Source: an uncultured candidate division Zixibacteria bacterium (GTDB lineage: Bacteria > Zixibacteria > MSB-5A5 > RBG-16-43-9). From it: DNA of 64,000 bases. Under the pieces are notes generated by a model. The model worked only from the letters and a program-made list of their open reading frames with translations. It did no database searches and had not been told where the DNA came from. Below, piece by piece: positions 33,780-60,378 of this stretch (position 1 is its first letter; each line of letters begins with the position of its first letter). The position numbers were made by a program, and so were the translations under genes. Location of the stretch: the NCBI GenBank assembly GCA_963713865.1, contig OY970208.1:1088001-1152000 (forward strand), read 5' to 3'.

Positions 33780-35916
33780 TCAAATATTCCACAGATAAGT
33801 TGCCTTCAGCATCAGGACCCTTTGCTTAAGCCAGAATTTGCCGGCTGAATTATCCCTTTGCTCATTATAAGCTAAATAAAGGTAACTTCCCGGAAAATAG
33901 TTATATCCTACGAGGAAATTTAGCTGATGCTGATGAGAGTCCATATTCGTTTCTAAGAAGATGCGGGTGAAGATATCCTTAGTGATTTGGTATCTTACCC
34001 AGTAGTCCAAAATCCAGATATTATAAATTCTGTCCTTGTAATCATTTTGATACTGGCTCTGGTGATTGATGTTAGTCTCCAATTCTAAGTTCACCAAAGG
34101 CTTCACAGTCGCCCAGAGGGAAAAAGACCTATAAGTCCCTGGCTCGGTTCGGGTATAATCATCTTTATAAATATAGGCCTCCCCTTGATTGTAGCTAAAT
34201 CCCCCATCTAAGAAACCATGGGACTCTCTGTCAAAGTTCAGATAGAAGAAGTCATTGGTATAGACCTGATCACTCCAGAACCAGAACGCCATCCTGATAG
34301 ATCTGAGGTCTGTCTTTTTCCCTTCCGAATCCAAAATTGAAAAACCAATTCCTGACAAAATTGAAGTCAACCTCCGGGATAATTGCCTGATAGGTGGTAG
34401 CTCCTGAATGGTTCGAGGTATGATAGATACCGGTCCCTAAATTAAAAGTCTTCAAATCTAATTTAGTTGGCCTGAACTGATAACCCCACCAGGAGCTAAT
34501 CTTCTGGTAATCGGTCCGGCTCACGTATCCGGTCCTGGGTCGGAAATTCTTTTCCAGGTCATCATATTGCAGATTGAAATTGAAACCTTTATCTGGCGAG
34601 CGGTTTAACTGGAAAGCATAAGCCCAGTCATCTTTATTCACCCCTTTATTGAATACCTTTCCCCCGCTTAAGACCAGAAGATAAATATTCTTAAAGCGGG
34701 AATCATAACCCAACCGGAAAGATCGACTGTAATCATCCTTTGTATCCAAACTGGTTCCCATAAAAGCAATATTGCCTGACTTAGAAACATCTCTTTTTAT
34801 CTGGAATATGGTGAAATAATCATCTGGTGCATCCGGCACTTCATCTACTGCCTGAATAAATCCTAAGGTATATTTATCGATTTTGCCGGTAAGTTTCAGC
34901 CCCTCTATGGGATTTACTATCCTTCGACTGTAAAAAAGGTTAAAGCGAGAACTGAATATATCTGCCCGTTCCAGAAAAAATGGCCTTTTCTCATTGAAGT
35001 AGGTCTCATAGGGTGAAAGGTTTATCTGGTCCTGGTCAGATTCTATCTGTCCGAAATCGGGATTCAGGGTAAAATCCAAGGTCAGGTTGGAGGTGACCCC
35101 GTATTTGACGTCCAGACCGGTGTCGAACTTGTTTTTTTCTTTTAAATCGATCTGCTTTTCCGACCTGAAAGTTGAGTAGGGAAGAAACTCGAAATGGTAC
35201 CCTCTTTTAATATCTTTTAATCCGACCAGTTTTGCCGAATGATCCAGAAGCGGGTCTTCCCTAGGGAAGCTGGTATAGAAAATCTGCTCCCCTTTGCGTC
35301 TTATGATTCTCAGGAAATTAACTCCCCATTCCTGCTCGTTTTGAGGCGAGAATCTCAGACTTTTGAAGGGAATGGCCATCTCACCGGTCCAGCCATCTAT
35401 GGTTCTGTTTCCGTCTGAACGCCAGATAGCATCCCAGCTCTCATCCTGGCTATTACCATCGCCGACAAAATCACCTTGAATACCATAGGGGTTCAAAGCA
35501 AACCAGTATGAAAATCTCTTATCGTTAAAGGTGTCCAGAATAACACCGACTACGTCATCATTCGAGGCATAGTCCCGGCGGGTGATATGGGCGGTCACTT
35601 TCTTTGGCTCAGAATCATAACAACGAAAAGCGATATAGAGGTTGTTCTCATCATAACACATCCAGGCGCAAGTCTTCTCAGTAGGAGCTTCGCAATTTTT
35701 CGGATCGAATTGGACAAAATCGCACAACTCCTGAGATTCCTTCCAGCAGGGGTCATCCAACTTGCCATCGATTTTAGGGGGATTAGAAATCCGATGAACC
35801 TGGATTATTTTAACTGAAGTGCTATCCTCTCCGTTACTTTCATCTGTAAAAAAAATCGTGAAGAGGAAATTGAAAAACAGAAAGAAAAACAGGGAAATCA
35901 ATAGATATTTTTTCAT
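33780..35916 (-). CDS. CBM9-like / DUF5916 outer-membrane protein, split by a +1 frameshift at about 34275-34287
   Basis: 'PKIDGKLDD..W', 'YDENNLYIAF', 'LDFTLNPDFGQIESD..EKRPFFLE', and C-terminal 'KATYLWNI'. The two ORFs join as QDGVLVWSDQVY. Confidence 0.82.
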
Positions 35917-36211
35917 TATACTTACACTCAAGGTAACTTTTCAATACAACTAATTTTTATATACGAGCAAGAAGGATTGTGGGTTTCAAAAAAGAAAGTT
36001 AGTCAGACTGTTTAAACTTTGAAGGAACTTCCCGACAAAATCTATGAACTTGTCCCTTCCCGTTAATTTTATCCCTCACCTGACCACTTTCCTGTGGATC
36101 AGTTTAGGAAAGAAAAGGGTGGAAATAAATCGCCCGACATTAAAGTCGGGCATTACGATTTCTATGCTGCTCAAAGATGTTATCACCTTCGACAAAGTCA
36201 AGAAAATCGAA

Positions 36212-37144
36212 TCAATATTTCTTCCTTCTCTCGATTATGTATTTGGAGCCGGGTAGGGATTTGGTATATTTTTTCAGGTCGTTGAGCATATGGAAGATCT
36301 CCCCGATATGCTTGAACATCCGGTTTTTGTTTATCACCACGGAGATAGAAAGAGTCAAAATGGGGAAGCGCTCCAACTGGCCTCTTCTGTTCTTGGTAAC
36401 GATATAACCGCGCTTTATATCCCTGGCTTTGTAGGTAGCTATAATCTTCTCGTCAAAAGTCCTTACAATCAGAGAACAGACCTTATCTACTTTATCTGAA
36501 GGAACGATGTAGATGAAATCGTCTCCGCCGATATGTCCCACAAACCCTTCCGGGCAATTTTCATAAACTATCTCCCTTATGATCTGGGAGCTCAGGCGGA
36601 TAAGCTTATCTCCATAGAGATAACCGTAATAGTCATTGTAAGCCTTGAAATCATCTAAGTCCGCATAACACAGGGCAAATTCCTCTCCTTTAAGAATAAG
36701 GCGATTGACCTCTTTTTCGATTATGCTGGTTCCGGGAAGGCGGGTAGAAGGGTTCACCCCTAAATCCCTCTGACTTCTACGCACAATCATCTTTAGCTTG
36801 GCGGAGAAAAGGTCTTTTTGCCAATCTCCAAAAAGGAACTCATCTGCCCCTTTGCCCAAGCCGTTAATGACTGTTTTCTTTTCTGGATGTGAATGATAAA
36901 GAACCAGAGGAATTAAGGAAAGATGGGTATCCTTTTTCAATTTTTCTACCAGCTGAAGTTCTTTCTTATAATTACCTTTTCCGGAAATAAATACCAGAGC
37001 CAGAAGATGTCGATTTATATGTTTGAAAAGATCTGGGCTATTTCTAAAATTAAAAAATTTAACCTTCTGGGGATAAAAGCTTTCCTTTAATTCTTTTTTT
37101 AGATTAATCCCCTTATCATATAAAGCCAGATTCAACATCTTCAT
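36212..37144 (-). CDS. Degenerate receiver plus GGDEF-domain protein
   Basis: 'NPSTRLPG', 'YADLDDFKAYNDYYG..GD', 'GHIGGDDF'. Confidence 0.88.
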   Translation of the reverse strand: MKMLNLALYDKGINLKKELKESFYPQKVKFFNFRNSPDLFKHINRHLLALVFISGKGNYKKELQLVEKLKKDTHLSLIPLVLYHSHPEKKTVINGLGKGADEFLFGDWQKDLFSAKLKMIVRRSQRDLGVNPSTRLPGTSIIEKEVNRLILKGEEFALCYADLDDFKAYNDYYGYLYGDKLIRLSSQIIREIVYENCPEGFVGHIGGDDFIYIVPSDKVDKVCSLIVRTFDEKIIATYKARDIKRGYIVTKNRRGQLERFPILTLSISVVINKNRMFKHIGEIFHMLNDLKKYTKSLPGSKYIIERRKKY

Positions 37145-37154
37145 CCGCTCCTAG

Positions 37155-38054
37155 CTATTTATGCGGTTTTTCTCTAGGATGATGGTCCAGGTGTTCCTGC
37201 TTTATAAATTCCCGGTCAATATGAGTATAGACCTGCGTAGTAGATATATCGGCATGTCCTAACATCTCCTGCACTGCCCTTAAGTCTGCTCCACCTTCCA
37301 AAAGATGGGTGGCAAATGAATGCCTGATCGTATGGGGGGTAACTCTTTTTTTGATCCCAGCGAGAAGTATGTATCTCTTTATAATCTTCCAGGCTCCCAT
37401 GCGGGATAATTTCTTACCTCTCCAGTTCAAAAACATAATGTCTTCGGATGAGGGCTTGGCTAAATGCGGCCGGGAGTATTTTAAATACTTTCTTAATGCT
37501 CTTTTCCCTTTGTTGCCAATTGGAATGAACCTTTCCTTGTTACCCTTACCAATTATTCGGACCCAACCAACCTCTGGGAGAAAATTCTTTCTTGTAAAAT
37601 TGATCATCTCAGAGATCCTTACCCCTGTAGCATAAAGAAATTCTAAGATTGCCTGATCTCTCCATCCCAAATAATCTTTTGGATAGGGTAGCTCCAATAT
37701 CTTTTTCATCTCATCTACGGTCAAAGTCCCAGGTAATCTTCTCCCTATCTTTGGAGAGTCGATGGTCTCAGTCGGGTTAGAATCAGAGTAGTCTTCATTC
37801 AAAAGGTAGGTATGAAAACTTTTGATCGCTGAAAGATTTCTGGAGATAGAAGTGGACTTGAGTTTTTTTCGGTAAAGTCTCAATATAAATTCGCTTATGT
37901 CCTCCGGTCTTATAGCCTTAAGATCAGGGATATTCTTCTTCTTCAGGAATTTAAAATACTTATGCAGGTCTAAACGGTAGCTCTCCAGGGTGTTTTGAGA
38001 TAAACCCCGGGATAGGTGCAGATGATGAAGAAACTCCTCTAACCTTTTCTGCAT
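37155..38054 (-). CDS. xerD: Site-specific tyrosine recombinase XerD
   Basis: 'LYATGVRISE', 'GKGNKER', 'TPHTIRHSFATHLLEGGADLRAVQEMLGHADISTTQVYTH'. Confidence 0.92.
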   Translation of the reverse strand: MQKRLEEFLHHLHLSRGLSQNTLESYRLDLHKYFKFLKKKNIPDLKAIRPEDISEFILRLYRKKLKSTSISRNLSAIKSFHTYLLNEDYSDSNPTETIDSPKIGRRLPGTLTVDEMKKILELPYPKDYLGWRDQAILEFLYATGVRISEMINFTRKNFLPEVGWVRIIGKGNKERFIPIGNKGKRALRKYLKYSRPHLAKPSSEDIMFLNWRGKKLSRMGAWKIIKRYILLAGIKKRVTPHTIRHSFATHLLEGGADLRAVQEMLGHADISTTQVYTHIDREFIKQEHLDHHPREKPHK

Positions 38055-38084
38055 TTTTTAAGATATCTATCCTTTCTTCTTGTA

Positions 38085-38146
38085 TAGAGACGCATGCGAT
38101 GCGTCTCTACACCAGGAGGTAGGGGTGTATGGCAATACGCCCCTAC
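38085..38146. repeat. Two tandem REP-like palindromes
   Basis: TAGAGACGCATGCGATGCGTCTCTAC and GTAGGGGTGTATGGCAATACGCCCCTAC. Confidence 0.8.
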
Positions 38147-39909
38147 AATACTTTTATCACAATCATGGTGAAATCATCCTGTCCAGGCTTATTCTCGGTG
38201 AACTCTTTTATCTCCTGGTAGATTTTATCCTGGATCTGGATGGCTTTTAAAGCATAATTTTCCAGAAGTATTTCTTCTAGTCTTTTTGTTCCGAACTCCT
38301 CTCCCGCTTTATTTTCAGCCTCGGTTACACCGTCAGTATAGAATAAGATAAGGTCACCCGGATTCAGACCTAATACCATTTCCTTGTAATCATGATTCCG
38401 AAGAATACCCAGAGCTACTCCCCCTTCAGTCAGATACTCGATTGTGCCTTCCTCTCTCCTCAAAATCGGAGGATTATGTCCAGCATTGGAGAAGGTGAAG
38501 ACTTTATTTTTTATATCTAAAACTCCATAGACTGCGGTAACGTAGTTTTCTCTTTCTATGCTTTCATACAGCAGATTATTAACCTTAAAAAAGATAGTAC
38601 CGATAGCATAATTATTTCTTATCTCCGCCTTCAAACTTGCACGGAAAGAAGCCATAATCAACGCTGCAGGTATCCCTTTGCCCGAGACGTCCCCTATAGC
38701 TATTCCGATCTGGTCTTCGACTATAGGAATGAAATCGTAATAATCTCCACCCACCTGCTCAGAAGGTATATTTATCCCTGAGATATCTAAACCAGCCAGC
38801 TCCGGATCTTTTGGAGGAAGAAAACTCTGCTGAATCTTTCGGGCGATCAGAAGTTCTTCCTCCAGTTTTTTCTTTATCAGGATTTCTTCATGCAATCTGG
38901 TCCTCTCTATAGCCACGGCACAATGACTGGCAAAAGCGGTTAAGAGGTTCAGATCCCCATAATCATAAGAGTTCACCCGATTGCTCTCCAGATTGAAAAC
39001 CCCGATAGTCCTTTGGTCGGTTATAATCGGTGCCACTATCTCAGATTTAGTCTCGTGTCGAGCCTCAATATATCTCGTATCTTTTTCCACATCCGGGACG
39101 ATCACGGTCTGTCTATTCACCGCTACCCAGCCAACCAATCCTTGACCTAACTTTAATATTAAATCTGGCTCTATGGCTGGATCGAACCCCTTGGTTTTTA
39201 TCTCGCCCACCTCCTTTTTTTCCTTATCTATCAGGAAAATGGCGGCGGCATCATATTTCACCAGTCTTTTCAAGGAATCTAAGATCAATTCCAGAACCTC
39301 ATCTAAATTCAGGGAAGAGGAGATTAACCGGTCAACGTCTAAAAGGATTTCCTTTTCCATTGTTTCCTTTTTAGCTTTGCGATAGAGGTAGGAGTTGTCC
39401 AGAGCGATTGCCACCTGGTCGGCTAAGGAGGAGAAAATCTTTAAATCGTCAGGAGTAAATTCCTTACCGTGAAGTTTATTCATCGCCACCACCACTCCAA
39501 AGAGCTTCTCTCTTCTTAAAAGGGGAACGCAGATTAGCGAATCTATCCTGAACCCGAACTTTTCTTCTAATTCTGCTGAAAAGCGGCGGTCTTTTCGTGC
39601 CTGGTTAGCGATCACCGGTTTCTGGTTTAGTGCTACCCAGCCTGAAATCCCCTGGCCCAGTTTCAAGGATAAATTTTTTCGCTCCCCTTCTTTTTTCCCG
39701 CTATAGAGATAGAGATTTAGCTCCTGAGTTTTTTTGTCTAAAAGGGAGATAGAGCTGAAAGAGGCTTCCATAGCTTTGGTGATTAACTCTAAGATTATAT
39801 CCAAAAGCTCCTCCAGCTCAAGGGTAGAATTTAAAAGCTTGGAGGTTTCCATGAAAACACATCTTTCCGGATGATAGATGATTTTCTCTTCTGTATTTTT
39901 CTGTTCCAT
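38143..39909 (-). CDS. GAF-GAF-SpoIIE/RsbU PP2C phosphatase
   Basis: Two GAF domains, 'VGGDYYDF', 'IGDVSGKG', 'NAGH', 'YTDGVTEA', 'QDDFT'. Confidence 0.92.
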   Translation of the reverse strand: MEQKNTEEKIIYHPERCVFMETSKLLNSTLELEELLDIILELITKAMEASFSSISLLDKKTQELNLYLYSGKKEGERKNLSLKLGQGISGWVALNQKPVIANQARKDRRFSAELEEKFGFRIDSLICVPLLRREKLFGVVVAMNKLHGKEFTPDDLKIFSSLADQVAIALDNSYLYRKAKKETMEKEILLDVDRLISSSLNLDEVLELILDSLKRLVKYDAAAIFLIDKEKKEVGEIKTKGFDPAIEPDLILKLGQGLVGWVAVNRQTVIVPDVEKDTRYIEARHETKSEIVAPIITDQRTIGVFNLESNRVNSYDYGDLNLLTAFASHCAVAIERTRLHEEILIKKKLEEELLIARKIQQSFLPPKDPELAGLDISGINIPSEQVGGDYYDFIPIVEDQIGIAIGDVSGKGIPAALIMASFRASLKAEIRNNYAIGTIFFKVNNLLYESIERENYVTAVYGVLDIKNKVFTFSNAGHNPPILRREEGTIEYLTEGGVALGILRNHDYKEMVLGLNPGDLILFYTDGVTEAENKAGEEFGTKRLEEILLENYALKAIQIQDKIYQEIKEFTENKPGQDDFTMIVIKVL

Positions 39910-39990
39910 CTTTTTTGCTTTCGAGAAATTTACGACAACTTATTTAATACGATTCAACCTGTCAATCTGTTTTTTTCTTAAAATCCCAGA

Positions 39991-40172
39991 AACTCACCCT
40001 AAATCCCTCTTTTAAAAAGAGAGGGACTTATTTCCCCCTTCTCTTTTTAAGTCGTAGATCCCGCTCTTCGACAGACTCAGGGTGGTAAGCGAAGTTCAAC
40101 CACTAAAAGCGGGGAGAAAGGGAAAGCGGGATGAGTTTAGCATAATAACGCAGATTCAAGTCTGCGGTTACC
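39991..40172. repeat. Nested palindromic repeat cluster
   Basis: An outer AACTCACCC...GGGATGAGTT element encloses CCCGCT...AGCGGG, which encloses a TTCGAC..CTCA-type element. Confidence 0.65.
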
Positions 40173-40331
40173 ACTAAACTTTACTCAGATGTTACATAAA
40201 ATATGTCGAAAAAATTTTCCCACTTCAAGAAATTATTATTTATATTAGTGAGTTGATTAGTCTGGTTTAAAAGATTTTAATCCAGGATACTGGACTACTT
40301 AAAATTTAAAAATGTCTTCAAAGGATAATAT

Positions 40332-41430
40332 ATGAACGAACCAAAGAAAACCCCTTTTTACAAGATCCATCTGGATAACAAGGCAAAGATGGTGGAGTTT
40401 GCCGGATACTGGATGCCAATACAGTTCAAGGGGATAATGGAGGAGCACCGCAGGGTAAGGTCTACGGTCGGGCTTTTTGACATCACCCATATGGGAGAGT
40501 TTGAAGTGAGGGGAAAAGATTCTCTTGCTTTTCTGCAGAAGATGACCACTAATGACGTTTCCAAGCTTTCGGATTATCAGGTGCAGTACTCCTGTATGTG
40601 CTATGACGATGGCGGGATCGTGGATGATCTTCTGGTCTATAGATTACCGGACCGATTCTTTTTAGTGGTGAATGCAGCAAATATGGAAAAGGATTTTAAC
40701 TGGCTAAAAAGTCATCTTTTCGGGGATGTTAAATTAGAGGATTTAAGTGACCAGAACCGCACTTTTAGCTATTCAGGGACCAGTGGCGGAAAAGGTTATG
40801 GCGAAATTGACTTCTGTTGATTTGAAAAAGCTTCAATTCTACTGGGCAGCTAAGGGGAAAGTCACAGGGAAAGAGATACTTTTTTCCAGAACAGGATATA
40901 CCGGAGAAGATGGCTTTGAACTCTATATGCCCAACGAGTATGGTGAACACTTCTGGAATGCAATTATGCAGGCAGGTAAAGAGTTCGGAATGGAGCAAAT
41001 CGGACTTGGCGCCAGAGATTCCTTGAGGCTGGAGATGAAATATATGCTTTACGGAAACGATATAGACAAAACCACAAATCCCCTGGAAGCAGGGCTTGGC
41101 TGGATCGTCAAATTAGATAAAGGTGATTATACTGGTAAAGAGCCGACCCTTAAATTAAAAGAGAAAGGGATAAGAAGAAAGCTGGTTGCCTTTGAGCTTT
41201 CAGATAAAGCTTTTCCACGCCAGCATTACCCCGTAGAAAAGGATGGGAAAAAGATAGGCGAGGTAACTTCTGGCACATTTTCCCCTTCCTTAGAAAAAGG
41301 TATTGGATTAGGGTATGTGGAGGTAGGATACTCTGAGATCGGGACAAAACTGGATATAAATATCCGGGGTAAGAGCTTAGCAGCAGTGATAATTAAACCA
41401 CCATTTTACAAAGATTATACTCATAAATAA
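40332..41430 (+). CDS. gcvT: Glycine cleavage system aminomethyltransferase, +1 frameshift at about 40755
   Basis: 'KTPFY..MVEFAGYWMP', 'GLFDITHMGE', 'SRTGYTGEDGFE', 'GLGARDSLRLE'. The halves join as DLSDQTALLAIQGP. Confidence 0.92.
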
Positions 41431-41432
41431 AA

Positions 41433-42161
41433 ATGAAAATTGGCCTTTTTTTTACTCCAAATGAAGTCAGGGAAGAGGAATTAAAGAATCGAACCGTTTT
41501 AGTGATCGATGTTTTAAGGGCATCTACCACTATTGCCTATGCTTTGCATAACGGATGCAAGGGGATTATCCCAGCTAACTCGATTGATGGGGCGATTGAC
41601 TTGTCCAAGAAAATAGGGAGAGATTCTGCCCTTTTATGCGGTGAAAGGGAGGGTATAAAGATAGAAGGGTTTGACCTGGGGAACTCTCCTTTTGAATATG
41701 AAGCCGAAAAGATCAAGGATAAAACCCTGATCTTTGCTACTACCAACGGCTCCAAAGCGATTGTAAAAGGTTCAAATGCCAATTTTTTAACAGTTGGCTC
41801 CTTTGTCAATTTCCAATCAACTTTTAACTATATTTCCTCCAGCCCAAATGACCTAACAATTATCTGCTCAGGGAAACTGGACCAATTCGCCATAGAGGAT
41901 GTAGTCTGTGGTGGGTTATATGTAAGCTCCTTCTTAAAAGAAGGAAAGTACGAGTTAAATGATGCGGCTTTTGCAGCTCTTAATCTTTATGAGAGATATA
42001 AAAATAATCTTTTAGAGATGTTGAAAGAATCCTCTCACGGCAGGTATCTAATCGAACTGGGGTTTGAAAAAGATTTATATTTATGCGCTGAGCTTAATTC
42101 CCTGAAAGTAATTCCTCTATTGGACCAAGGCAAGCTGATTAGCTACAATAATAATACATAG
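41433..42161 (+). CDS. comB: 2-phosphosulfolactate phosphatase family protein
   Basis: 'VIDVLRASTT', 'LCGEREG..GFDLGNSP', 'TTNGS', 'EDVVCGG'. Confidence 0.88.
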   Translation: MKIGLFFTPNEVREEELKNRTVLVIDVLRASTTIAYALHNGCKGIIPANSIDGAIDLSKKIGRDSALLCGEREGIKIEGFDLGNSPFEYEAEKIKDKTLIFATTNGSKAIVKGSNANFLTVGSFVNFQSTFNYISSSPNDLTIICSGKLDQFAIEDVVCGGLYVSSFLKEGKYELNDAAFAALNLYERYKNNLLEMLKESSHGRYLIELGFEKDLYLCAELNSLKVIPLLDQGKLISYNNNT

Positions 42162-42175
42162 CAAAGAAAGTCAAG

Positions 42176-42598
42176 ATGAAAGATAAAAAGGATATTTACA
42201 GGATTCTGGATGCTAATCTGAATCGTGCGCGTGAGGGTTTAAGAGTAGTGGAAGAGGTAGTTCGATTCCTGTGGAAGGATGAAAAACTTTCCAAAAAATT
42301 GAAAAGCCTAAGACACAGGATAACCAAAATCTCTCAGGAGAATTTCGATCAGAAGCTTCTTCTGAAATACCGGGATAGCCAGAGTGATTTAGGAGCGAAA
42401 GGAATGGGTTTTTACGAGGGCAAAAGAAAAGATGTGACGACGATTGTGCAGGCAAACCTGAGAAGGACCGAAGAGGCTTTAAGGGTTTTGGAGGAGTTCG
42501 GGAAGCTGATAAAAAAAGATTCGGCTGAGTCTTTTAAAAATCTGAGGTTTAAAATCTATACCTTAGAAAAGGAGATTTGGAGTAAGTTGAAGGAATAA
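42176..42598 (+). CDS. Stand-alone ThiD2-like domain (N-terminal domain of long ThiE proteins)
   Basis: 'RILDANLNRAREGLRVVEE', 'ANLRRTEEALRVLEEF', 'RFKIYTLEK'. Confidence 0.8.
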   Translation: MKDKKDIYRILDANLNRAREGLRVVEEVVRFLWKDEKLSKKLKSLRHRITKISQENFDQKLLLKYRDSQSDLGAKGMGFYEGKRKDVTTIVQANLRRTEEALRVLEEFGKLIKKDSAESFKNLRFKIYTLEKEIWSKLKE

Positions 42599-42605
42599 AA
42601 TCATC

Positions 42606-42651
42606 TGTTATTGCGAGGAATCCTGATGTATGCGGGACGACGAAGCAATCT
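42606..42651. repeat. TGTCATTGCGAGG...GAAGCAATCT-type dispersed repeat (inverted copy at about 52401-52445)
   Basis: TGTTATTGCGAGGA...CGACGAAGCAATCT versus AGATTGCTTCGTCG...TCCTCGCAATTACA. Confidence 0.7.
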
Positions 42652-42692
42652 GCGTTTGTGTCCATCCTGATTTCTTTTACATCAAATTTATC

Positions 42693-42721
42693 TTGACTAC
42701 GTAAAAAGGAGCTATTATTAT
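42693..42721 (+). promoter_or_regulatory. Putative sigma-70 promoter
   Basis: TTGACT-N17-TATTAT upstream of the aldolase gene. Confidence 0.5.
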
Positions 42722-42785
42722 CTTTCGAGTCCTATGGTTTAGAATTGGGACGGTTTAACACCTGAATGATTCTTCCAGAAAAAAT

Positions 42786-43439
42786 ATGAGCACAATTCTT
42801 AAAACTAAAAAGGAAATAATAGAGATAGGGAAAAGGATGTATAATAAAGGGTATGTGGTGGCATCTGAGGGAAATATGAGTATCCGGCTGGGGGAAAATA
42901 AAATTCTGATCACTCCATCTGGTAAAAATAAAGGATTGCTTAAGGAGAAGGACTTAGTTGTAGTTGACCTGAAAGGAAAAAAACTTTCCGGTCCGCAGGA
43001 TCCAAATTCGGAAAATTTAAAACCTTCTTCTGAGCTTTTAATGCATCTTTTCGTCTATCAGAAAAGGAAAGATGTCAGTGCAGTGGTGCATGCTCATCCT
43101 CCCTATTCCTTAGCTTTTGCCTCTGCTCATCTTCCTTTAGCCCGAAATTTATTGCCGGAAGTGATTATGTTCTTAGGGGAAATTCCTTTAGCTGCTTATG
43201 CTACTCCCTCTACTGAAGAGGTCCCAAAATCTTTATCTTCATTCATAGAGAAGCATAATGCTTTCCTGCTTGAAAATCACGGGGTCTTAATCCTGGGTAA
43301 AGATATATTTGAAGCTTATAGTCGTCTGGAGATGGTAGAGCATTTAGCTGAGGTTAATTTATTATGCAGAATTTTAGGGAAAACAGAAGAGCTATCAAAA
43401 GAATCTTTAGATAAATTAGAAAAGTTGAAAAGGATATGA
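42786..43439 (+). CDS. Class II aldolase/adducin family protein (FucA-like)
   Basis: 'EGNMS', 'ITPSG', 'KPSSE..MH', 'VHAHP', 'LENHG'. Confidence 0.9.
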   Translation: MSTILKTKKEIIEIGKRMYNKGYVVASEGNMSIRLGENKILITPSGKNKGLLKEKDLVVVDLKGKKLSGPQDPNSENLKPSSELLMHLFVYQKRKDVSAVVHAHPPYSLAFASAHLPLARNLLPEVIMFLGEIPLAAYATPSTEEVPKSLSSFIEKHNAFLLENHGVLILGKDIFEAYSRLEMVEHLAEVNLLCRILGKTEELSKESLDKLEKLKRI

Positions 43440-44633
43440 GAAAAGTTATAGTGGAAAAAGCCGAAAGGTTAGAGAAGATCCCACCTTACCCCTTGTTTGA
43501 CATCAATCGAACCCTGAAGAGGCTGGATAAAAAAGGAGTGGAGATAATCGATTTAGGTCGATTCGATCCTGCTTTTTCTTTACCTGATTCAATTCAAAAG
43601 GTCTTGTCTTCGCTTTATACTAAAGAGAACTTCAGTTATGCCGAAGCTTCTGAGGTCTTAAAATTAAAAGAGATTTTTTCTGTTCTGGTTCAAAAAAAGA
43701 TATGGGATTCTGTTAAATCCTAAAACCGAGATTTTATTCTATACAAGCAAAAGAGAAATTATAGCTCAATTATCCCTCTTTTTCATCAACCCGGGGGATA
43801 AGGTTTTCATAACTGAGCCTTCCAGTCAGATTTACAAAGGTTGTACCCTGTTAGCTGAAGGAGAGATAGAAGTCCTTCCTCTTTTAGAAAGGAACGATTA
43901 TCTTCCGAATTTAAACCCTCTAAAAGGTCAAAGTAAAAATAAGCGTAAGTTTTTCTTTTTAAACTTTCCTCATAATCCTACGGGTTCTTTAGCTGATCTT
44001 TTTTTCTATCAAGAATTAGTCGAGATAGCTTTAAAAAATAATATCCGAATAGTACAGGATGCTACCTATAACGAAATCTATTTTGATGAGCATTTACCTC
44101 CCAGTCTGATGCAGGTTGAAGATGGTAAAAAGGTTGGAGTGGAATTGCATTCGCTTTCAGCTGGCACAGGTCTTTCAGGATTAGATTGTGGTTTTATAGT
44201 TGGGAACAGGGAGATGATCTTCGGGCTGGATTCCCAGAACAAACTGTTTAGCCAAAGGCAGAACAGGTTTATACTTAAATTAGCTGAAGCTCTTCTGCAG
44301 GAATATGAGTCGGTAATAAGCAGGAACCGGAATGAGTATAAAATTAGAAGAGATATTATGATAGAAATCCTTTTGGGTTTGGGCTGGAGAGCAAAGAAAC
44401 CCAAGGCAACGCCATTTTTCTGGGCTCAAATACCTGGCAGGTATTCATCCTTAGGTTTTTGCCGGATGCTTTTGAGGAGGACCGGAGTCTTAGCTTCTCC
44501 AGGTATAGAATATGGAGGAATTGGAGAGGGTTTTATCCGGCTTAGCTTGAATCAGCCTAAGGAAAAGCTTAAAGAGGCAGGGGAAAGGATAAAAGACCAT
44601 TTCCATATCTGGCAGAAGAAGTACCGGAGCTAA
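43436..44633 (+). CDS. Class I/II aminotransferase-like protein (LL-DAP aminotransferase-like), +1 frameshift at about 43683 and no catalytic Lys
   Basis: 'ERLEKIPPY', 'INPGD', 'NFPHNPTG', 'QDATYNEI', 'HSLSAG' (Lys absent), 'GEGFIRLSL'. Confidence 0.8.
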
Positions 44634-52124: not shown

Positions 52125-52219
52125 TTTTTTTGGGGTTCGTTTAACCTGCCCCTTTTTTATATACCATAACATTATAGTTGCTTGATTTGGCAAGTTTGTT
52201 TTGCTGAAGCGAAACTTTA

Positions 52220-52262
52220 CCCCACCCTACCCTCCCCTTTCTAATGAGAGGGAAGGGAGAGG
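52220..52262. repeat. CCCCACCCT..CCCTCCC...GGGAGAGG-type palindromic repeat
   Basis: CCCCACCCTACCCTCCCCTTTC...GAGAGGGAAGGGAGAGG resembles the outer element at 39991. Confidence 0.55.
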
Positions 52263-52588
52263 TTTTTCTGTTAGATGAGGGGAACCCAAATGGTTATGGA
52301 GACCTTTTCTTCGTTGTTGAGAACACCAATCCTGTGGATCCCCAATTTTGGGTCTTGATGAAAAATTCGGACGAAAAGCAAAATCTACTTTACCTGAGAC
52401 AGATTGCTTCGTCGTCCCACCTATGGAAGACTCCTCGCAATTACAATTGATCAATTCCCTCGGTTCGGGCAGGAATCGTACTCCTACCCGGGAATGGGGT
52501 AAAACCCCTATCTCAGTATGGTGACCACACCCCCACAGTTTAATTTTGTCTTGCGATTTTTTGAAATTTTCTATAAGTTAGTTTCAAT

Positions 52589-53614
52589 ATGAGAGGAATG
52601 CCGATTTTAGGTATCACTATGGGTGATCCAGCTGGAATAGGTCCAGAGGTGGTCTTTAAATCGATAATAAGTCCCCAGGTTAAAAAGGTTTGTATCCCTT
52701 TAGTCTTTGGTTCCAAAGACGTTTTCTCTGAGACGATGAATAAATACGCTAAAGGTTATAAGTTAAATCAAGTCTATTCAATAGAAGAACTTAATAGAGA
52801 TAAAAAGGTTATAAATATTTTACATTGCACCGATTTGGATTATAAGAAGGTAAAAATTGGAGAAATTAATAAAACCTCAGGTGATATGGCAGCTTGCTGT
52901 TTAGTTTATGCAGTTCAGTTCGCTTTAGCCCGGGAAATAGATGGGATGGTGACTGCACCTTTATCCAAGAAGGGTCTAAAATCAGCCGGTTATGATTTTC
53001 CAGGACAGACTGAGATGATCGCTTTCCTTACTGCTTCCACTAAATTCGGGATGATGTTTGTAAGAGAGGATTTAAAACTTATCCTGGTAACCACCCATTT
53101 ACCTTTATCCAGAGTGAGCAGAGAGATCAATTCTCGGAAAGTTTTTGAAAAGATTGAGCTGGCAGATAAGGTTTTAAGGTTTTTATTCCGAATAAAATCA
53201 CCCAAAATCGGTGTCTGTGCTTTAAACCCTCATTCTGGAGAGGAAGGGCTTTTTGGAAAAGAGGAAAAAGAAGCGATTATACCTGCTATTAAAAAAGCTC
53301 AAGGAAATAAGATAAGAGCATTTGGTCCTTTTGCAGCTGATTCTATATTCGGTAAAGAATTTTCAGCTAAGTTCAATTGTATAATAGCGATGTATCATGA
53401 TCAAGGGCTTATTCCGATGAAAATAAACGGAGTAGGGAGCTCGATTAATCTCTCAGTTGGTATTCCAATCATCCGTACCTCTCCGGATTTCGGTACCGCC
53501 CTGGATATTGCAGGTAAAGGAAAGGCAGATCCAAAAGGGATGATTAAGGCTATAATTTTAGCGGTCAATTTGACAAAATCTGCAAAATATTTAGAGAAGG
53601 TCTGGTCTAATTAA
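52589..53614 (+). CDS. pdxA: 4-hydroxythreonine-4-phosphate dehydrogenase family protein
   Basis: 'TMGDPAGIGPE', 'TAPLSK', 'LNPHSGE', 'MYHDQGL', 'RTSPD.GTA.DIAGKG'. Confidence 0.88.
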   Translation: MRGMPILGITMGDPAGIGPEVVFKSIISPQVKKVCIPLVFGSKDVFSETMNKYAKGYKLNQVYSIEELNRDKKVINILHCTDLDYKKVKIGEINKTSGDMAACCLVYAVQFALAREIDGMVTAPLSKKGLKSAGYDFPGQTEMIAFLTASTKFGMMFVREDLKLILVTTHLPLSRVSREINSRKVFEKIELADKVLRFLFRIKSPKIGVCALNPHSGEEGLFGKEEKEAIIPAIKKAQGNKIRAFGPFAADSIFGKEFSAKFNCIIAMYHDQGLIPMKINGVGSSINLSVGIPIIRTSPDFGTALDIAGKGKADPKGMIKAIILAVNLTKSAKYLEKVWSN

Positions 53615-53624
53615 AGGTAATTAA

Positions 53625-54290
53625 ATGAAAGATATTATTATAAAAGCACAGGGTATCACTAAAATCTATGAGGGCTTTAAAATCGCTTTGAAAAATATTG
53701 ATCTGGAAATAGAAAAGGGTGAATTCCTTTTCCTGGTTGGATTGAACGGGGCCGGGAAAACCACGTTACTTAAACTTCTCTGGATGGAGGAGGAACCAAG
53801 TTCAGGTATGGTCTTCATAGATGGATGCAGTACTCTGGAAAAAGATAAAAAAAGGGTTTCAGATTTAAAACGGAAATTGGGGCTGGTGTTCGAAGATTTA
53901 AAGCTTATGAGGAAGAAAACTTTAGAAGATAATTTAGCTTTTCCTTTGAGGGTTCTGGGTAAAAATGAAAAATATATTAAATCAAAAGTAGCTGAGCTTT
54001 TGGGAACTTTTAACCTCTACTCCAAAAGGAGACTTTTACCAGAAGAGATTTCAGCCGGGGAAAGGAAAAAACTGGCTATTGCCCGGGCAGTGATAAACGA
54101 GCCGCTGATAATTTTAGGGGATGAACCTTTCGGAGGGTTAGATGAAAACTACTCCTCTGAGATAATCGACTTTTTTAAACAAGTAAATTTTAAAGGCACT
54201 ACCGTGTTTTTAGCTACCCATAGAACTAACCTTGTCAGAAATTTTAAAGGGAGAGTAATCCAGTTAGAGAATGGGGAGATAAGAAGATGA
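53625..54290 (+). CDS. ftsE: Cell division ABC ATPase FtsE (divergent)
   Basis: Walker A 'GLNGAGKTT', Walker B 'ILGDEP', 'ATH'; adjacent to ftsX and envC. Confidence 0.82.
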   Translation: MKDIIIKAQGITKIYEGFKIALKNIDLEIEKGEFLFLVGLNGAGKTTLLKLLWMEEEPSSGMVFIDGCSTLEKDKKRVSDLKRKLGLVFEDLKLMRKKTLEDNLAFPLRVLGKNEKYIKSKVAELLGTFNLYSKRRLLPEEISAGERKKLAIARAVINEPLIILGDEPFGGLDENYSSEIIDFFKQVNFKGTTVFLATHRTNLVRNFKGRVIQLENGEIRR

Positions 54291-55138
54291 GCTTAGTTTT
54301 CTGGTTAAAGGAGTCGTTTGCCGGGTTTTTCAGGGAAAAAGGCTCTGCTTTTATATCTTTCTTCGTCAACACCTTTTTCTTTCTGATCTTCGCCATTTTC
54401 CTTTTAGTTACTTATAATCTTTACACCTTCACCCAGAAGGTAAAACAAAAGATGGAGATAGACGTCTATGTATCTGAGGGATTAACAGACAAAGAGAACG
54501 AGGAGTTAAAGTCTAAAATTATAAAAATAGAAGGGGTGGAGGGTGCTATATTTCGTACCAAAGAAAAAGCTCTGCAGGAACTTAAAAATTATTTAGGTAA
54601 GGATATCTTAGAAGGTCTGGAATCTAATCCTTTGCCTTCTTCCTGGGTAGTGAAATTAAAGCCAGCTCATCAGAACTTAGAGAAGATGCAAAAAATCTCT
54701 TCCCAGATAGCAAAGATCAAAGGGGTAGAGGAGACAGACTACGGAAAGTTCTGGGTAGAAAAAATGGATCAACTTTTCGAAATCTTCCTCTGGGTAAATT
54801 TAGTTTTAGGGATTCTGATAATTTCGGGCTCTTTGTTTTTGATGATTCATACCTTAAGAACTATCCGCCAGTCTAAAGCTGAGGAGCTTACTCTTTTAAA
54901 TCTTTTAGGCGCAGAAAGAGGTTTCTTAAGAAAGGTTTTTCTTTTCGAAGGAATTATGCATGGCGGAGTGTGCGCATTTTTAAGCTTATTAATCCTTTAC
55001 ATACTTCACAGATTATTTATTTATTTCGGATTCGAGCTCAGCTTTTTGTCCTTGTCCCTTTCGATTACCTTTGTTTTCTTCGGATTTCTCTTAGGCGGAT
55101 CTGCCGGGCTTTTGTCCGGTGGGAAAAAATTAAGTTGA
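54287..55138 (+). CDS. ftsX: Cell division permease FtsX
   Basis: Four transmembrane segments, 'NPLPSS', 'GVEETDYG', 'LLGA..FLFEG'. Confidence 0.85.
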   Translation: MSLVFWLKESFAGFFREKGSAFISFFVNTFFFLIFAIFLLVTYNLYTFTQKVKQKMEIDVYVSEGLTDKENEELKSKIIKIEGVEGAIFRTKEKALQELKNYLGKDILEGLESNPLPSSWVVKLKPAHQNLEKMQKISSQIAKIKGVEETDYGKFWVEKMDQLFEIFLWVNLVLGILIISGSLFLMIHTLRTIRQSKAEELTLLNLLGAERGFLRKVFLFEGIMHGGVCAFLSLLILYILHRLFIYFGFELSFLSLSLSITFVFFGFLLGGSAGLLSGGKKLS

Positions 55139-55201
55139 TACAGTAAGACAGGAATTTCAGGTTGGAGCAGGGCAATTGCCCTGTCCCAGCGGAAAAGATG
55201 T

Positions 55202-56383
55202 ATGATGAAAGGGTTTTTCAAATTAAGCGTCGTCCTTTTTCTTTCTTTTTTAAGTTCAGGGATTTTATTATATTCTGCTAATAAAGGTAAAGTCCGGGCT
55301 CAAGGTCTGGATGATAGAATCACTGAACAAAAAGATGAATTAGAGAAGATCAGAAAAGAGTTAGAAGGAAAAAGAGAGAAGGTTAAGAAGCTTTCCAAGA
55401 AAGAGTCCTCGGTTTTCATCGAGATAAAGAATTTAGAGGAAGAGCTTGAGCTTATAGATAAACTACTTTTGAGGCTTAATCAGAAATCTAAAAAGGTGGG
55501 GAAAGATATTATAACCACGGAGACGCTTTTGGGGAAATCTCAATTGAGATTTCAAGCTAAAAGGGAGGAGTTAGGGTGTCGCCTCAGAGATATTTACAAA
55601 TATATGAGGTTCAGGGAATATGAGATCCTCACCGGTGCCTCATCCCCGCTTGATCTGATGAGGAGGTTGAAATATATGAAGCTTATCACCCGACAGGATC
55701 AGACTTTAATTCAGGAGATCTCAAAAGAGATTAAGAACATAGAAGAAAACAAAAAATCCTTGGAGTCAAAAAGGAAGGAACTAACTTCTTTGATTAAGGA
55801 AAAGGATAAAGAGGAAAAGAAAAGGAATCAGGAGAAAAGCAAGAGAGAGAAACTTCTGAAAACGATTAGATCGGAAAAGGAAATCTATCTTCAATCGGTT
55901 AAGGAATTAGAGAAAAGCGCTCAGGAGATTGAAAAACTTTTAACCTCCTTAGAAAAAGAAAGGTTTAAAAAAGAAGTTGAGACCACAACCGGTCTATTCC
56001 GGGCTTTAAAGGGTAGGCTCCCCTGGCCGATTACAGGAAGAATAGTCTTAGGTTTTGGTGAGCAGAAGGAGGCAAGGTTTAATACCAAGCTTTTTAATCC
56101 CGGAATCGATATCTCACCTTCTTCAGATCTGGAGGTGAAAGCGGTAGCGGATGGCAGGGTAGTCTATTCATCCTGGCTCAGGGGTTATGGTAACTTTATC
56201 ATACTCCAGCATGATGATGGTTATTATACAGTTTATGCCAATCTAAAAGAGATTCTGGTAGGGGTAGGTGAAAATGTAGGGAGAGCCCAAACCATTGCCC
56301 GGTTAAATGGTTCTGAAAACAATTTTCATTTTGAGATAAGGAAGGGGAAAGAACAGCTTGACCCCTTAGAGTGGTTAAAATAA
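55202..56383 (+). CDS. envC: Murein hydrolase activator EnvC (coiled coil plus degenerate M23)
   Basis: Long coiled coil, 'KGRLPWPITG', 'GIDI', 'LRGYGNFIILQH', 'HFEIR'. Confidence 0.85.
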   Translation: MMKGFFKLSVVLFLSFLSSGILLYSANKGKVRAQGLDDRITEQKDELEKIRKELEGKREKVKKLSKKESSVFIEIKNLEEELELIDKLLLRLNQKSKKVGKDIITTETLLGKSQLRFQAKREELGCRLRDIYKYMRFREYEILTGASSPLDLMRRLKYMKLITRQDQTLIQEISKEIKNIEENKKSLESKRKELTSLIKEKDKEEKKRNQEKSKREKLLKTIRSEKEIYLQSVKELEKSAQEIEKLLTSLEKERFKKEVETTTGLFRALKGRLPWPITGRIVLGFGEQKEARFNTKLFNPGIDISPSSDLEVKAVADGRVVYSSWLRGYGNFIILQHDDGYYTVYANLKEILVGVGENVGRAQTIARLNGSENNFHFEIRKGKEQLDPLEWLK

Positions 56384-57522
56384 TGGTCATTAAAGATATT
56401 TTAGATCAGGAAGTTGTCAAAAAGATTTTGCAGGGAGCCTTGAGGGAGAAAAGGATTGCTCATTCCTATCTTTTTACCGGTCCAGCCGGCACTGGCAAGT
56501 GGTTTACTGCGATTGAATTAGCCAAAGCAGTCAATTGTTTAAAAGGTGGGTTTGATTCCTGTGAAGAATGTTTAGCCTGTAAGAAAATCAATCGTTTGAT
56601 CCATCCGGATTTGTCTTTAATCTTCCCGCTTCCACCCTCCTCTTCGGGCAAAAAAAGCAAAAAAGAAAAAGAGGAGGAGGAACAGAAAAACCGGACTAAA
56701 TTTAAAGAGGAAAAACTTTCCAATCCGTATAAGATCGTTAAATACGAAAAACCAGGCTCGATCTCCATAGAAGAAGTGAGAAACGCTCAGAAAAATCTAC
56801 GGTACACTCCAGTAGAAGGCAAATATAAAGTTTTGATAGTACAGGAGCCAGAGAAGATGTCATTGGCAGCGGAGAACTGTTTTCTTAAAACCTTAGAGGA
56901 ACCGCCCAGAGATTCTCTTTTGATCTTTTTAAGCTCTGAGCCGGAAAAGCTTTTACCTACGATAGTGTCCCGCTGTCAGAGGATAAGGTTCAAAAGGATC
57001 TCAGAGGAGCTTATTGCCTTGAGACTTGAAGAAATCTTTAAGTTCTCCGGAGATAAAGCCCTTCATTATGCCAGACTCTCAGAAGGGAGCTTGGGGATGG
57101 CTTTTTCCTTAGCGGAAGGAGGTAGGGATGAGATTCGCTTCAATGGGGTGGAGTTCTTAAAAGTAGTTCATAATAAGGATAGAATAAAATTGGTTGAGTT
57201 CGTAGAGCAAATCCTAAGGGATTACGAAAGAGAATCTCTTTTAGAGCTTTTAAATTTTCTTTCAGGTCTGTTGAGAGACATCTACGTTTTTTCTGAAACC
57301 CAGAAGGAAGAGAGGTTTTTAAATCCGGACCTGAGGAAGGAGATAAAAGCTTTTGTCCAGTATTTCAAAGGGAGAGAAGAATTAGAAAAGACATTAGAAC
57401 TGGTTGAAAAAATTCGGGAAGACCTTTTGAGGAATGTTAATTTGAAGTTAGCCCTTTTAAACTTAGGATTTGAGCTGAGGAAGATAACCTCAGGCTTAAG
57501 GAGAGAGAAGCTGGTTACGTAA
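56383..57522 (+). CDS. holB: DNA polymerase III subunit delta'
   Basis: 'HSYLFTGPAGTGK', Zn-binding 'CEECLAC', 'HPD', 'LKTLEEPP', 'LLPTIVSRC'. Confidence 0.9.
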   Translation: MVIKDILDQEVVKKILQGALREKRIAHSYLFTGPAGTGKWFTAIELAKAVNCLKGGFDSCEECLACKKINRLIHPDLSLIFPLPPSSSGKKSKKEKEEEEQKNRTKFKEEKLSNPYKIVKYEKPGSISIEEVRNAQKNLRYTPVEGKYKVLIVQEPEKMSLAAENCFLKTLEEPPRDSLLIFLSSEPEKLLPTIVSRCQRIRFKRISEELIALRLEEIFKFSGDKALHYARLSEGSLGMAFSLAEGGRDEIRFNGVEFLKVVHNKDRIKLVEFVEQILRDYERESLLELLNFLSGLLRDIYVFSETQKEERFLNPDLRKEIKAFVQYFKGREELEKTLELVEKIREDLLRNVNLKLALLNLGFELRKITSGLRREKLVT

Positions 57523-57553
57523 TATCATTATATAGTTAAAGAAAATAAAGGAG

Positions 57554-58384
57554 ATGGAAATGGAGTTATATTTAGTGGAATTCAAGGGTTCGAGAAAACA
57601 ATATTTTTTAAATCCAGAAAACTTTTCAGTAAAATTAGGGGATTATGTAATAGTTCAGGCAGAAAGAGGAGAGGATTTGGGGAAATTAGTCAAAAAGATA
57701 GAGATAGAAGATCCTTCGGGTATAATAGAAAAGCCTTTGAATCTTCTGAGACTCTCTACCCCGGAGGATTTACAGAGGATGAGGGAAAATCAGGAGAGAG
57801 GGGGAAAAGCCTTAGAGGAGTGTCAAAGGCTGATTGAGGAAAGGAATTTGGAAATGAAGCTGGTGGATACGGAATATCAATTCGACGGGAGCAAGCTCAC
57901 CTTTTTCTTCACCGCTGAGAAAAGGATAGATTTCAGGGAACTGGTAAAAGAGTTAGCCTCAATTTACCGTACCCGTATAGAACTCAGACAGATTGGGGTA
58001 AGGGATGAAGCTAAAAGATTAGGAGGTTATGGATGCTGCGGTCTGAAGCTCTGCTGTACCACCTTTATCCAGGAATTCTGTCCTATAACCACTCAAATCG
58101 CCAAGGAGCAGAACCTGTCTTTGAATCCAGCCAAGCTCTCCGGGAACTGCGGAAGACTTTTATGCTGTCTTTTATATGAAAAAGATTTTTATGAAAAGAG
58201 TATGGGGCTCTATCCTAAGGTCGGCTCAAAATTCCAAACCGACAAGGGAGAAGGGGTAGTGGAGAAGGTTAATCTGTTTAAAGAATATATTGTGGTGAAA
58301 CATGAGGATGGGGAGGAACAAAAGGTAGGTTTAGCTGAACTTAAAAAAAGGTTAAAGAAATCAAGAGGCGTTCAGCCCGTTTAA
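57554..58384 (+). CDS. ricT: PSP1-domain protein RicT/YaaT
   Basis: 'RIDFRELVKELA..RIELRQIGVRDEAK..G.CG..LCC', 'KLSGNCGRLLCCL'. Confidence 0.9.
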   Translation: MEMELYLVEFKGSRKQYFLNPENFSVKLGDYVIVQAERGEDLGKLVKKIEIEDPSGIIEKPLNLLRLSTPEDLQRMRENQERGGKALEECQRLIEERNLEMKLVDTEYQFDGSKLTFFFTAEKRIDFRELVKELASIYRTRIELRQIGVRDEAKRLGGYGCCGLKLCCTTFIQEFCPITTQIAKEQNLSLNPAKLSGNCGRLLCCLLYEKDFYEKSMGLYPKVGSKFQTDKGEGVVEKVNLFKEYIVVKHEDGEEQKVGLAELKKRLKKSRGVQPV

Positions 58385-58424
58385 AACGATTACGAATTCT
58401 TAAAGTTAGTAGAAGGAGGAAATC

Positions 58425-60378
58425 TTGACTGAGCTGAAGACTAATTCAAGCAAAAGAAGGTATTTCATAACAACCCCGATATATTATGTGAATGACAAGC
58501 CGCATATCGGGCATACCCGCCCTACAGTTGCCGCAGATATCCTCTCCCGCTTTCACCGGATTAAAGGGGATGAGGTATTTTTCTTAACCGGCACAGATGA
58601 GCATGGGAGTAAAGTGGCAGAGGAAGCAGAGAAATTGGGGATTTCTCCACAGGAGCTTTGCGATAGAAATAGCCAGCTTTATAAAGGTGCCTGGAAAAAG
58701 CTTAATATCTCTTATGATTATTTTGTGCGAACCACAGACCAGAGGCATATCCAGGCAGTGGAAAAGCTTTTGGAAAAGCTCAATCGGGCAATAGATGATA
58801 AAAGTCAGAAAATTGTTTATCCGGGAGAATATTCAGGATTATACTGTGTGGGATGCGAAAAATTCATCACTGAGAAAGATTTAGTAAATGGGCTATGCCC
58901 GAACCATCTTAAACCTCCGCAAAAAGTCTCAGAAAAGAACTATTTTTTCAGGCTATCCTCTTTTCTTCCTTTAGTGGAGAAACTCATCTCTGGGGATAAA
59001 ATCAAAATCCTACCTGAGGAGAAAAAAAACGAGACCCTGGGGCTTTTCAAACAGGAGCTGGAGGATTTCTCTATTTCCAGAGAGAAAGTTACCTGGGGTG
59101 TAGCTCTACCCTTTGATCCTTCTCAGAAGACTTATGTTCTGGGTGGATGCCCTTCCCAATTATATCTCGGCAATCGGATATGGGGATAATCCGGATGAAT
59201 TCAGAAAATGGTGGACGGACGGCTATGTGATTCATCTTTTAGGAAAAGATATTTTGAAATTCCACAATATATACTGGCCAGCGATGCTCCTCGCTCTCGG
59301 AGAAAAAACACCAGACATACTTTTCATCCACGGGTTTTTCACAGTTAATGGTCAAAAAATGGGAAAGTCTCTGGGCAACGTGATTGATCCTTATTATCTG
59401 GCAGAAAAATACGGCTCAGATGCTACCCGCTATCTGCTTTTGACCCATTTTCCATTCGGGCAGGATGGGGATATTCAGGAGAAAAGGTTAGAGGAGAAAT
59501 ACAATTCAGATTTAGCAAACGATTTCGGGAATTTAGCCAGCCGGGTCTTAAAACTTATAAAAGAAAATTTTCAAGGGGAGATTCCCCAGCCTTCGGATTA
59601 TCAGACAGAGGAGAGGGAGCTGCAGGATTTAGCAGAAAAGACAGTGGATGTGGTTTTTGATTCGATAGAAGAGTTGAATATCAACCAGGCGTTAGACGAG
59701 GTTTTAAAGTTAGTCCGATACACCAACCGCTATGTGGATAAAACCGCTCCCTGGAATTTGGCTAAACTTAAAGACAAATCACGTCTGGGAACGGTTCTAT
59801 ACGCTTCTGCCGAGACCTTGAGATTTATCAGCTTTCTTTTCTACCCGGCTCTGCCGGAGAAATGTCAGAAACTAAGAGAGATTCTGGGTCTGAGCAAAGA
59901 AGAAAGTATTCCTGATTTAAGAAAGGAAAAAAACTGGGGGTATCTAAAGCCGGGAACGAAAATAGGGGAGATCGTTCCTTTATTCCCGCGTCTGTCAGAA
60001 AAGACACAAATTGTAAAAGAAACAAAAGGAATTGGAGTGGAAGAAGAAAAAAAGAACGAGGTTAGTATTGAAGATTTCGCTAAATTAGATATCAGGGTGG
60101 CAAAGGTTTTAGAGGTGGAAAGAGTTGAAGGAGCAAAAAAGCTTTTAAAATTAAAAATAGAGTTCGGAGAGGAGAAAAGAGAGATAGTTGCCGGGATTGC
60201 TGAATATTATAAACCAGAAGAGTTAATTGGAAAAGAGATTATCCTGCTTGCCAATCTGAAACCAGCCAGGATAAGAGGGATAGAGTCAAAAGGGATGCTC
60301 CTTGCCGCTCAGGACGGGGAAGCTCTGACTATTCTTACTATAGATAAAAAAGTAAAGCCCGGAGCGAAGATTAGTTGA
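58425..60378 (+). CDS. metG: Methionine--tRNA ligase with C-terminal tRNA-binding domain, +1 frameshift at about 59137
   Basis: 'TTPIYYVN..HIGH', 'GTDEHG', 'KMGKSLGN', 'DFAKLDIRVA..ESKGMLLAA'. The halves join as KTYVWVDAL. Confidence 0.93.

Follow-up and report, generated by a model that had tools for sequence, protein, structure and literature searches.

Sequencing errors tied to modified motifs have been described in several bacteria. In the parts of the reports drawn on here, about 70% of the consensus errors made with default models lay in Dcm motifs (CCWGG) (Wick et al., PMC6591954), the strain-specific Listeria motifs GCAGC/GCTGG gave thousands of mismatches that whole-genome amplification removed (Chiou et al., PMC10687267), and methylation-linked purine/pyrimidine ambiguities at strain-specific motifs in Klebsiella and others were removed by polymerase chain reaction-based sequencing (Lohde et al., PMC11610573). 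The sections used of a 2025 benchmark count errors as methylation-induced if they lie within 5 bp of a methylated base (PMC12392509). Here we analyze frameshifts at the heptamer CCAGAAC, which has one A more than the hexamer CCAGAC, in the genome record of an uncultured candidate division Zixibacteria bacterium (assembly GCA_963713865.1). The pattern was first seen in a stretch of 64,000 nucleotides, the window, which comprises positions 1,088,001-1,152,000 of a single 2,723,046-bp contig (OY970208.1; 40.4% G+C).

The breaks are specific to this motif, extend over the whole genome irrespective of strand and interrupt essential genes, and the extra base is absent from relatives. In this strain the extra base is very likely a systematic artefact of the consensus sequence, and a modification of the DNA at CCAGAC is quite probably its cause.

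An initial annotation had attributed four split genes in the window to CCAGAAC, and the heptamer was found at all four places: 34275-34281 (+), 40751-40757 (+), 43682-43688 (-), and 59136-59142 (-). Each copy sits within the overlap of two open reading frames (ORFs) derived from one gene. These four breaks are the sole long frame-fusion intervals in the window, the remaining ones being short gene-boundary overlaps with stop, ribosome-binding-site, or ATG signals. The heptamer is considerably more common than the initial annotation had supposed. Instead of one copy per 8 kb there are 22 copies in the window, or one per 2.9 kb, compared with 7.2 expected from shuffled sequences; the window also holds 38 CCAGAC sites. 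The chance that an interval of roughly 80 nt contains the motif was estimated at ~0.03, giving ~1e-6 for four of four breaks, a coincidence far beyond chance despite the abundance of the motif.

Enrichment of CCAGAAC at frame breaks

The whole 2.72 Mb genome was scanned for positions at which deletion of one base joins an upstream and a downstream open frame, each of at least 60 codons, into a frame of at least 200 codons, with unjoined continuations of fewer than 40 codons. This surplus-base scan yielded 550 intervals, and the mirror scan for a missing base yielded 495. With no motif supplied in advance, the most enriched 7-mer in the surplus-base intervals was CCAGAAC, which 78 of the 550 contain where 5.13 would be expected (p ~1e-62). 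Genome-wide enrichment of the motif at frameshifts had been set beforehand as a test of the initial annotation, which it passed overwhelmingly. Once the motif-holding intervals were removed, only ribosome-binding-site and ATGA gene-boundary words were still enriched, and in the missing-base scan enrichment was limited to gene-boundary words of the ATGA type.

Counted per site, 83 of the 671 CCAGAAC copies in the genome (12.4%) overlap a surplus-base interval, and the excess rises to 94-99 sites under looser thresholds. With 1186 intact CCAGAC sites in the genome, the share of true CCAGAC sites affected is ~6-8%. For 79 sites the interval takes in one of the two A positions, and among these the motif is in the sense orientation 29 times and in the antisense orientation 50 times. 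Homopolymers of 5 to 9 bases and longer coincide with fusion intervals about as often as expected and are not clearly enriched. The assembly is otherwise clean and not generally indel-prone.

The dependence on the motif is strict. Each of the 21 single-substitution variants of CCAGAAC overlaps intervals at a rate of 0 to 3%, and the pooled rate (68/8710, 0.78%) is that of the genome background (0.77%). All six positions of CCAGAC are required, even the first C at a distance of four to five bases from the doubled A. The hexamer is not a palindrome, and as GTCTGG, its complement, lacks A, the motif presents an adenine on one strand only. Such an all-or-none dependence on the six bases of an asymmetric motif would fit the recognition site of an enzyme.

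Two further words, TACGGAA (9 intervals against 1.2 expected) and GTAGAAA, were considered as a second error motif in the missing-base scan and were rejected as ordinary gene boundaries; two of their sites are copies of one repeat. The looser motif GCAGAAC, which occurs near a break in dxs, was likewise discarded. It is at background (3/301), and the surplus base in dxs maps to a run of C elsewhere. The dxs split lies outside the window at L045:7919 (genome about 2,539,919), where the record reads CCCC and five aligned relatives read CCC. To judge from this alignment, it is an ordinary homopolymer-length error, a surplus C unrelated to CCAGAAC. The Lon protease ORF at L046:7313-9424 (genome about 527,313-529,424) ends inside Lon_C, of which it covers profile positions 2-87 out of 205, and the missing-base scan has a fusion interval in the same region at 527,386-527,431. 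The end of this ORF may mark another frameshift away from the motif.

The distribution of the affected sites has two further features. No frameshifting CCAGAAC occurs in a 350-kb stretch of the genome outside the window (1,634,487-1,983,916), within which the section from 1.7 to 1.9 Mb alone holds 94 intact CCAGAC sites. The stretch ends at a GC-skew switch near 1.9 Mb, and its lack of frameshifting sites may be due to chance or to an error rate that varies with coverage or replication. Some genes hold two or three frameshifting copies of the motif (L056:1-2720 and L089:1-1468). In a subtilase-like gene there are three CCAGAAC sites, of which two are separated by 19 bases; the two sites of L089 are separated by 16 bases. 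If an overlap interval contains two copies, an error at one of them suffices.

Genes split by the motif and their intact relatives

Both halves at all 79 sites were scanned against Pfam, and classes were assigned by reading the resulting tables. At 46 of the 79 sites the matches identify a single split gene. Seventeen of these have one family on both sides of the break with abutting profile coordinates, as in a pyruvate formate-lyase-like protein (1-281/282-647), ABC_tran (1-94/100-137), and Epimerase (1-103/106-239). At the other 29 the break interrupts a domain or an architecture well known from single proteins, with GuaA, LigA, RadA, NuoG, BirA, FtsA, and Adk as examples. Thirty sites could not be judged, one or both halves having no Pfam match or repeats only. 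The remaining three are likely to be separate genes (sdhC beside sdhA, Glycos_transf_4 beside Bac_transf, and a nearly complete MscL), a number that fits the roughly 5 overlaps expected by chance. The genes split include metG, a class II aminoacyl-tRNA synthetase gene, guaA, ligA, ftsA, adk, and radA, together with birA, nuoG, nuoL, pyruvate formate-lyase, and gcvT. Overall, about 80-100 genes of the genome record look broken by this motif.

In the window, Pfam confirms the splitting directly for three of the four genes (gcvT, metG, and the aminotransferase gene). The gcvT gene, encoding aminomethyltransferase, lies on the plus strand at 40332..41430 and is represented by ORFs 40332-40820 and 40747-41430. 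Its CCAGAAC (40751..40757, one surplus A) is on the sense strand. The two halves abut at the break, positions 2-145 of the GCV_T profile being matched in one and positions 137-254 plus GCV_T_C in the other. The metG gene, encoding methionyl-tRNA synthetase (58425..60378, plus strand; ORFs 58425-59189 and 59113-60378), carries the motif on the minus strand, so that the plus strand reads GTTCTGG with one surplus T at 59136..59142. Both halves match tRNA-synt_1g, the downstream half with profile positions 247-391 plus Anticodon_3 and tRNA_bind. A class I/II aminotransferase gene (43436..44633, plus strand) is split at 43682..43688, where the plus strand again reads GTTCTGG with one surplus T and the motif is on the minus strand. 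It consists of ORF 43436-43723 and a frame reaching 44633; the downstream half spans positions 54-361 of the Aminotran_1_2 profile, and the 95-residue upstream ORF has no Pfam match.

The fourth gene, of the DUF5916/CBM9 family, is on the minus strand at 33780..35931. Its upstream half (ORF 34270-35931) matches PF19313 (5.7e-32) and PF06452 (CBM9_1), and its downstream half (ORF 33780-34370) has no Pfam match. The motif that breaks it, with one surplus A at 34275..34281 on the plus strand, is the first unit of the tandem CCAGAACCAGAAC. Deletion of one base from the motif yields the peptides given in the initial annotation, DQTALL in gcvT, SVWFKKR in the aminotransferase gene, and YVWVDAL in metG, as verified by eye on the sequence. 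In metG the conserved tryptophan is regained only if the base removed from GTTCTGG is a T or the C.

Upstream of gcvT, an intergenic element at 39991-40140 of the window includes a short inverted repeat resembling a hairpin. Matches to the element occur at many places in its own genome and in relatives at 82-95% identity. It has no Rfam match, is not a tRNA, and is probably a small dispersed repeat.

Aligned genomes of relatives lack the extra base at every site compared. At the DUF5916 site all three aligned genomes (G001, G004, and G008) read CCAGACCAGAAC, one base fewer than the record. All seven genomes aligned at the gcvT site have one base fewer, with CCAGAC in G001, G006, G007, and G008. 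The same is true of the six genomes aligned at the aminotransferase site, where G001 reads GTCTGG, and of the four aligned at the metG site, where G002 and G004 read GTCTGG and G001 and G003 read GTGTGG. Genomes of the same genus or family thus mostly carry CCAGAC or GTCTGG at the window sites. At four further sites elsewhere in the genome (L083:579, L083:1851, L058:645, and L058:940), all five relatives have a one-base gap in the motif, so that the gap is present at all 8 sites tested. In the alignments with G001, a genome of the same genus, these L083 and L058 sites are the sole gaps in 2160 and 2207 bases. A non-frameshifting copy of GTTCTGG at L083:758 is ungapped and conserved in the relatives.

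Metagenome contigs gave the same result. Contigs from three sediment metagenome runs of different studies lack one base at position 43683 of the window, and the shorter form accounts for the entire depth in each (X1, 5.71/5.71; X2, 23.1/23.1; X4, 46.8/46.8); this comparison rests on these three runs, X14 having no cover there. At metG, an X2 contig is one letter short: from 59137 on it has 163 letters in place of the 164 of the window. The DUF5916 site was also sought in metagenome contigs with a pattern open to both forms, and the three contigs that matched all carry the shorter one.

Origin of the extra base

A cell cannot lose all of metG, ligA, ftsA, adk, guaA, radA, nuoG, and nuoL. An otherwise clean assembly in which dozens of indispensable genes are split by the same change at the same 7-mer, whichever way the motif is oriented, argues for a consensus error. 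A decaying genome would be expected to show varied breaks and to spare its essential genes, whereas here one 7-mer and one change recur and essential genes are affected. The view of the initial annotation that the genes are not pseudogenes is borne out, many essential genes being split at the same 7-mer while relatives and the three metagenome contigs lack the extra base. For the insertions to be real, a site-specific mutation or editing process would have to add an A at CCAGAC in this strain. Only the sequence record itself speaks for such a process, and it would leave at least 46 genes split, essential ones among them, and the base is missing from relatives and metagenome contigs; we consider it extremely improbable. 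The recurrence of the same heptamer at the breaks could also recall programmed +1 ribosomal frameshifting or transcriptional slippage at CCAGAAC, by which the proteins would be restored. However, the motif is antisense at 50 of the 79 sites, an orientation count that already refutes recoding, the homologous genes are unbroken at the same places in relatives, with no extra base at any of the 8 sites, and AA is far too short for slippage. The probability left to recoding is negligible. The initial annotation was correct in placing the event at the DNA level and in tying it to the motif, and with 29 sense and 50 antisense sites its argument from orientation is upheld.

The account that we favor, and consider likely as a whole, is a long-read consensus error at CCAGAC as an enzyme-modified site. 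The extra base would be absent from the DNA of the organism and would be a systematic error of a long-read-only, single-molecule assembly. Short-read polishing would remove errors of this kind, and the record is therefore probably derived from long reads only. CCAGAC would be the site recognized by one of the organism's own adenine methylases for asymmetric sites, of the Type IIG-like or Type III kind. Its modification, probably to N6-methyladenine (m6A) at position 5, would distort the signal for a basecaller or polisher untrained on such bases. The penultimate A would then be called twice in the consensus at roughly 6-8% of CCAGAC sites, giving CCAGAAC and shifting the frame of the host gene, and the local context would decide which modified sites tip the consensus.

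The initial annotation had pointed to Type IIG or Type III methyltransferases, and a search of the genome returned two Type IIG-like proteins and one Type III mod/res pair, all of them candidates only. One Type IIG-like protein has HSDR_N, Eco57I/N6_Mtase, and TaqI_C domains and is encoded at L063:1-2656 (genome 395,484-398,139). Its gene is itself split by CCAGAAC at genome position 395,903, so that a candidate writer of the motif is mis-annotated in the record through the same error. The second is a 1040-residue protein with Eco57I/N6_Mtase domains, encoded at 719,455-722,574 of the genome, and no neighbors of the bacteriophage exclusion (BREX) type were seen beside its gene. The Type III mod gene (L048:4782-6760, genome about 2,683,782-2,685,760) adjoins a res gene for a protein of 1133 residues. 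About six further N6/N4 methylase genes are present, one of them beside a BanI-like nuclease. The genome has no match to PF00145, the profile searched for C5 methylases, and none to DndC. It has no match to DndE either, a search that is uninformative as it also gave none in control genomes.

Several observations weigh against the favored account. With identities of 71-98%, the relatives belong to other strains or species and show the ancestral state rather than the DNA of this strain; no sequencing run holding this strain was found, the best run containing 0.22 of the sampled words. NCBIfam matches of the candidate enzymes are at the domain level only, far below equivalog cut-offs, so that no enzyme can be assigned to CCAGAC, and the literature on CCAGAC methyltransferases and m6A, judged by title, yielded no bacterial CCAGAC enzyme. 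The Type III mod is itself in two ORFs (N6_N4_Mtase profile 1-127 and 142-216) with a break that lacks CCAGAAC and that may be an error, phase variation, or a real inactivation. Merely ~6-8% of CCAGAC sites are affected, and their flanks differ from those of intact sites (at +1, A 41% versus 20% and T 11% versus 30%; at +5, T 51% versus 31%), which indicates that local sequence context matters too. Finally, all cases here are one-base insertions and not, as is mostly reported in the sources cited above, mismatches or ambiguous bases. The interpretation of the initial annotation stands in part. The motif-specific event at the DNA level, the enrichment, and the intact status of the genes are upheld. 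A modified base, and m6A in particular, is a candidate cause, and the form of the error, insertions where the published errors cited are mostly substitutions, weighs against its simplest version.

The small share of affected sites and the bias at +1 and +5 are also what would be expected if a basecaller or polisher miscalled the plain CCAGAC k-mer in some flanks, whatever its methylation state, and the contrast between insertions and the substitutions reported for modified motifs in the sources cited above points the same way. Against a purely contextual error, all 21 variants are at background, even those at position 1, which suggests an enzyme site rather than a graded signal context. We regard this explanation as unlikely, although it is the strongest of the alternatives. 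An insertion miscall with partial penetrance is, in the cited parts of the literature, atypical of m6A or 5-methylcytosine and might instead stem from a non-methyl modification at CCAGAC, such as a phosphorothioate, a deazaguanine derivative, or another bulky group. Phosphorothioation is known for partial occupancy of its sites. The absence of a DndC match (DndE being also unmatched, in a search without a working control) and the presence of several adenine or N4-cytosine methylases argue against it, and we judge it very unlikely. A broader proposal, which we rate as improbable, is that CCAGAC carries a modification new to basecalling models, either a non-methyl or hypermodified base or an unusual combination of m6A and N4-methylcytosine. 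Its writer would be the Type IIG-like or the Type III candidate, and it would explain why a base is duplicated instead of substituted as usual. If true, the errors of an assembly would by themselves have revealed a new modification specificity in a sediment lineage that is uncultured.

Under the favored account of a consensus error at a modified CCAGAC, roughly 80-100 genes of a species-representative genome are falsely split, including those for aminoacyl-tRNA synthetases, DNA ligase, FtsA, and complex I subunits, and the errors probably depress the completeness estimate of 94.16%. Claims of pseudogenes, gene fission, or frameshifts drawn from this genome should first be checked for CCAGAAC. 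Removal of the surplus A restores the frame at these sites, and the errors can thus be corrected mechanically. With nothing but the assembly as input, the ORF-fusion scan brought out a candidate methylation motif, and it could serve as a cheap screen for long-read genomes. The biological gain is confined to a candidate recognition site for a restriction-modification enzyme, and the main value of the result lies in the annotation warning and in the candidate motif.

Comparison with known systems

The artefact is of a kind that is already known. Like the nanopore modification errors described in the cited sections of the literature, it involves one short strain-specific motif, survives consensus building and polishing, affects part of the sites, and misleads gene calls and typing. 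Unlike those errors, which in the same sources are mostly substitutions, it is a clean one-base insertion duplicating an A, and here a long-read platform, whether nanopore or PacBio, and a modification are presumed from the pattern. An insertion-only signature was not found described in the modification-error literature, though no search was aimed at it.

Long-read homopolymer-length errors likewise consist of single-base indels that split genes, and the C-run in dxs is one such case in this genome. The error at CCAGAC differs from them in that the run concerned is a single A (two in the record) and the five other bases of the motif are needed as well.

The closest enzymatic parallels are the Type IIG/IIL systems of the MmeI and Eco57I type, BREX PglX, and the Type III systems. 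CCAGAC differs in being a candidate site read from sequence alone, with candidate enzymes that fall short of the NCBIfam equivalog cut-off. It resembles their recognition sites in being 6 bp long and non-palindromic with adenine on one strand, and domain-level homologues of these systems are encoded in this genome. These enzyme families typically methylate the penultimate A, which is the position doubled here.

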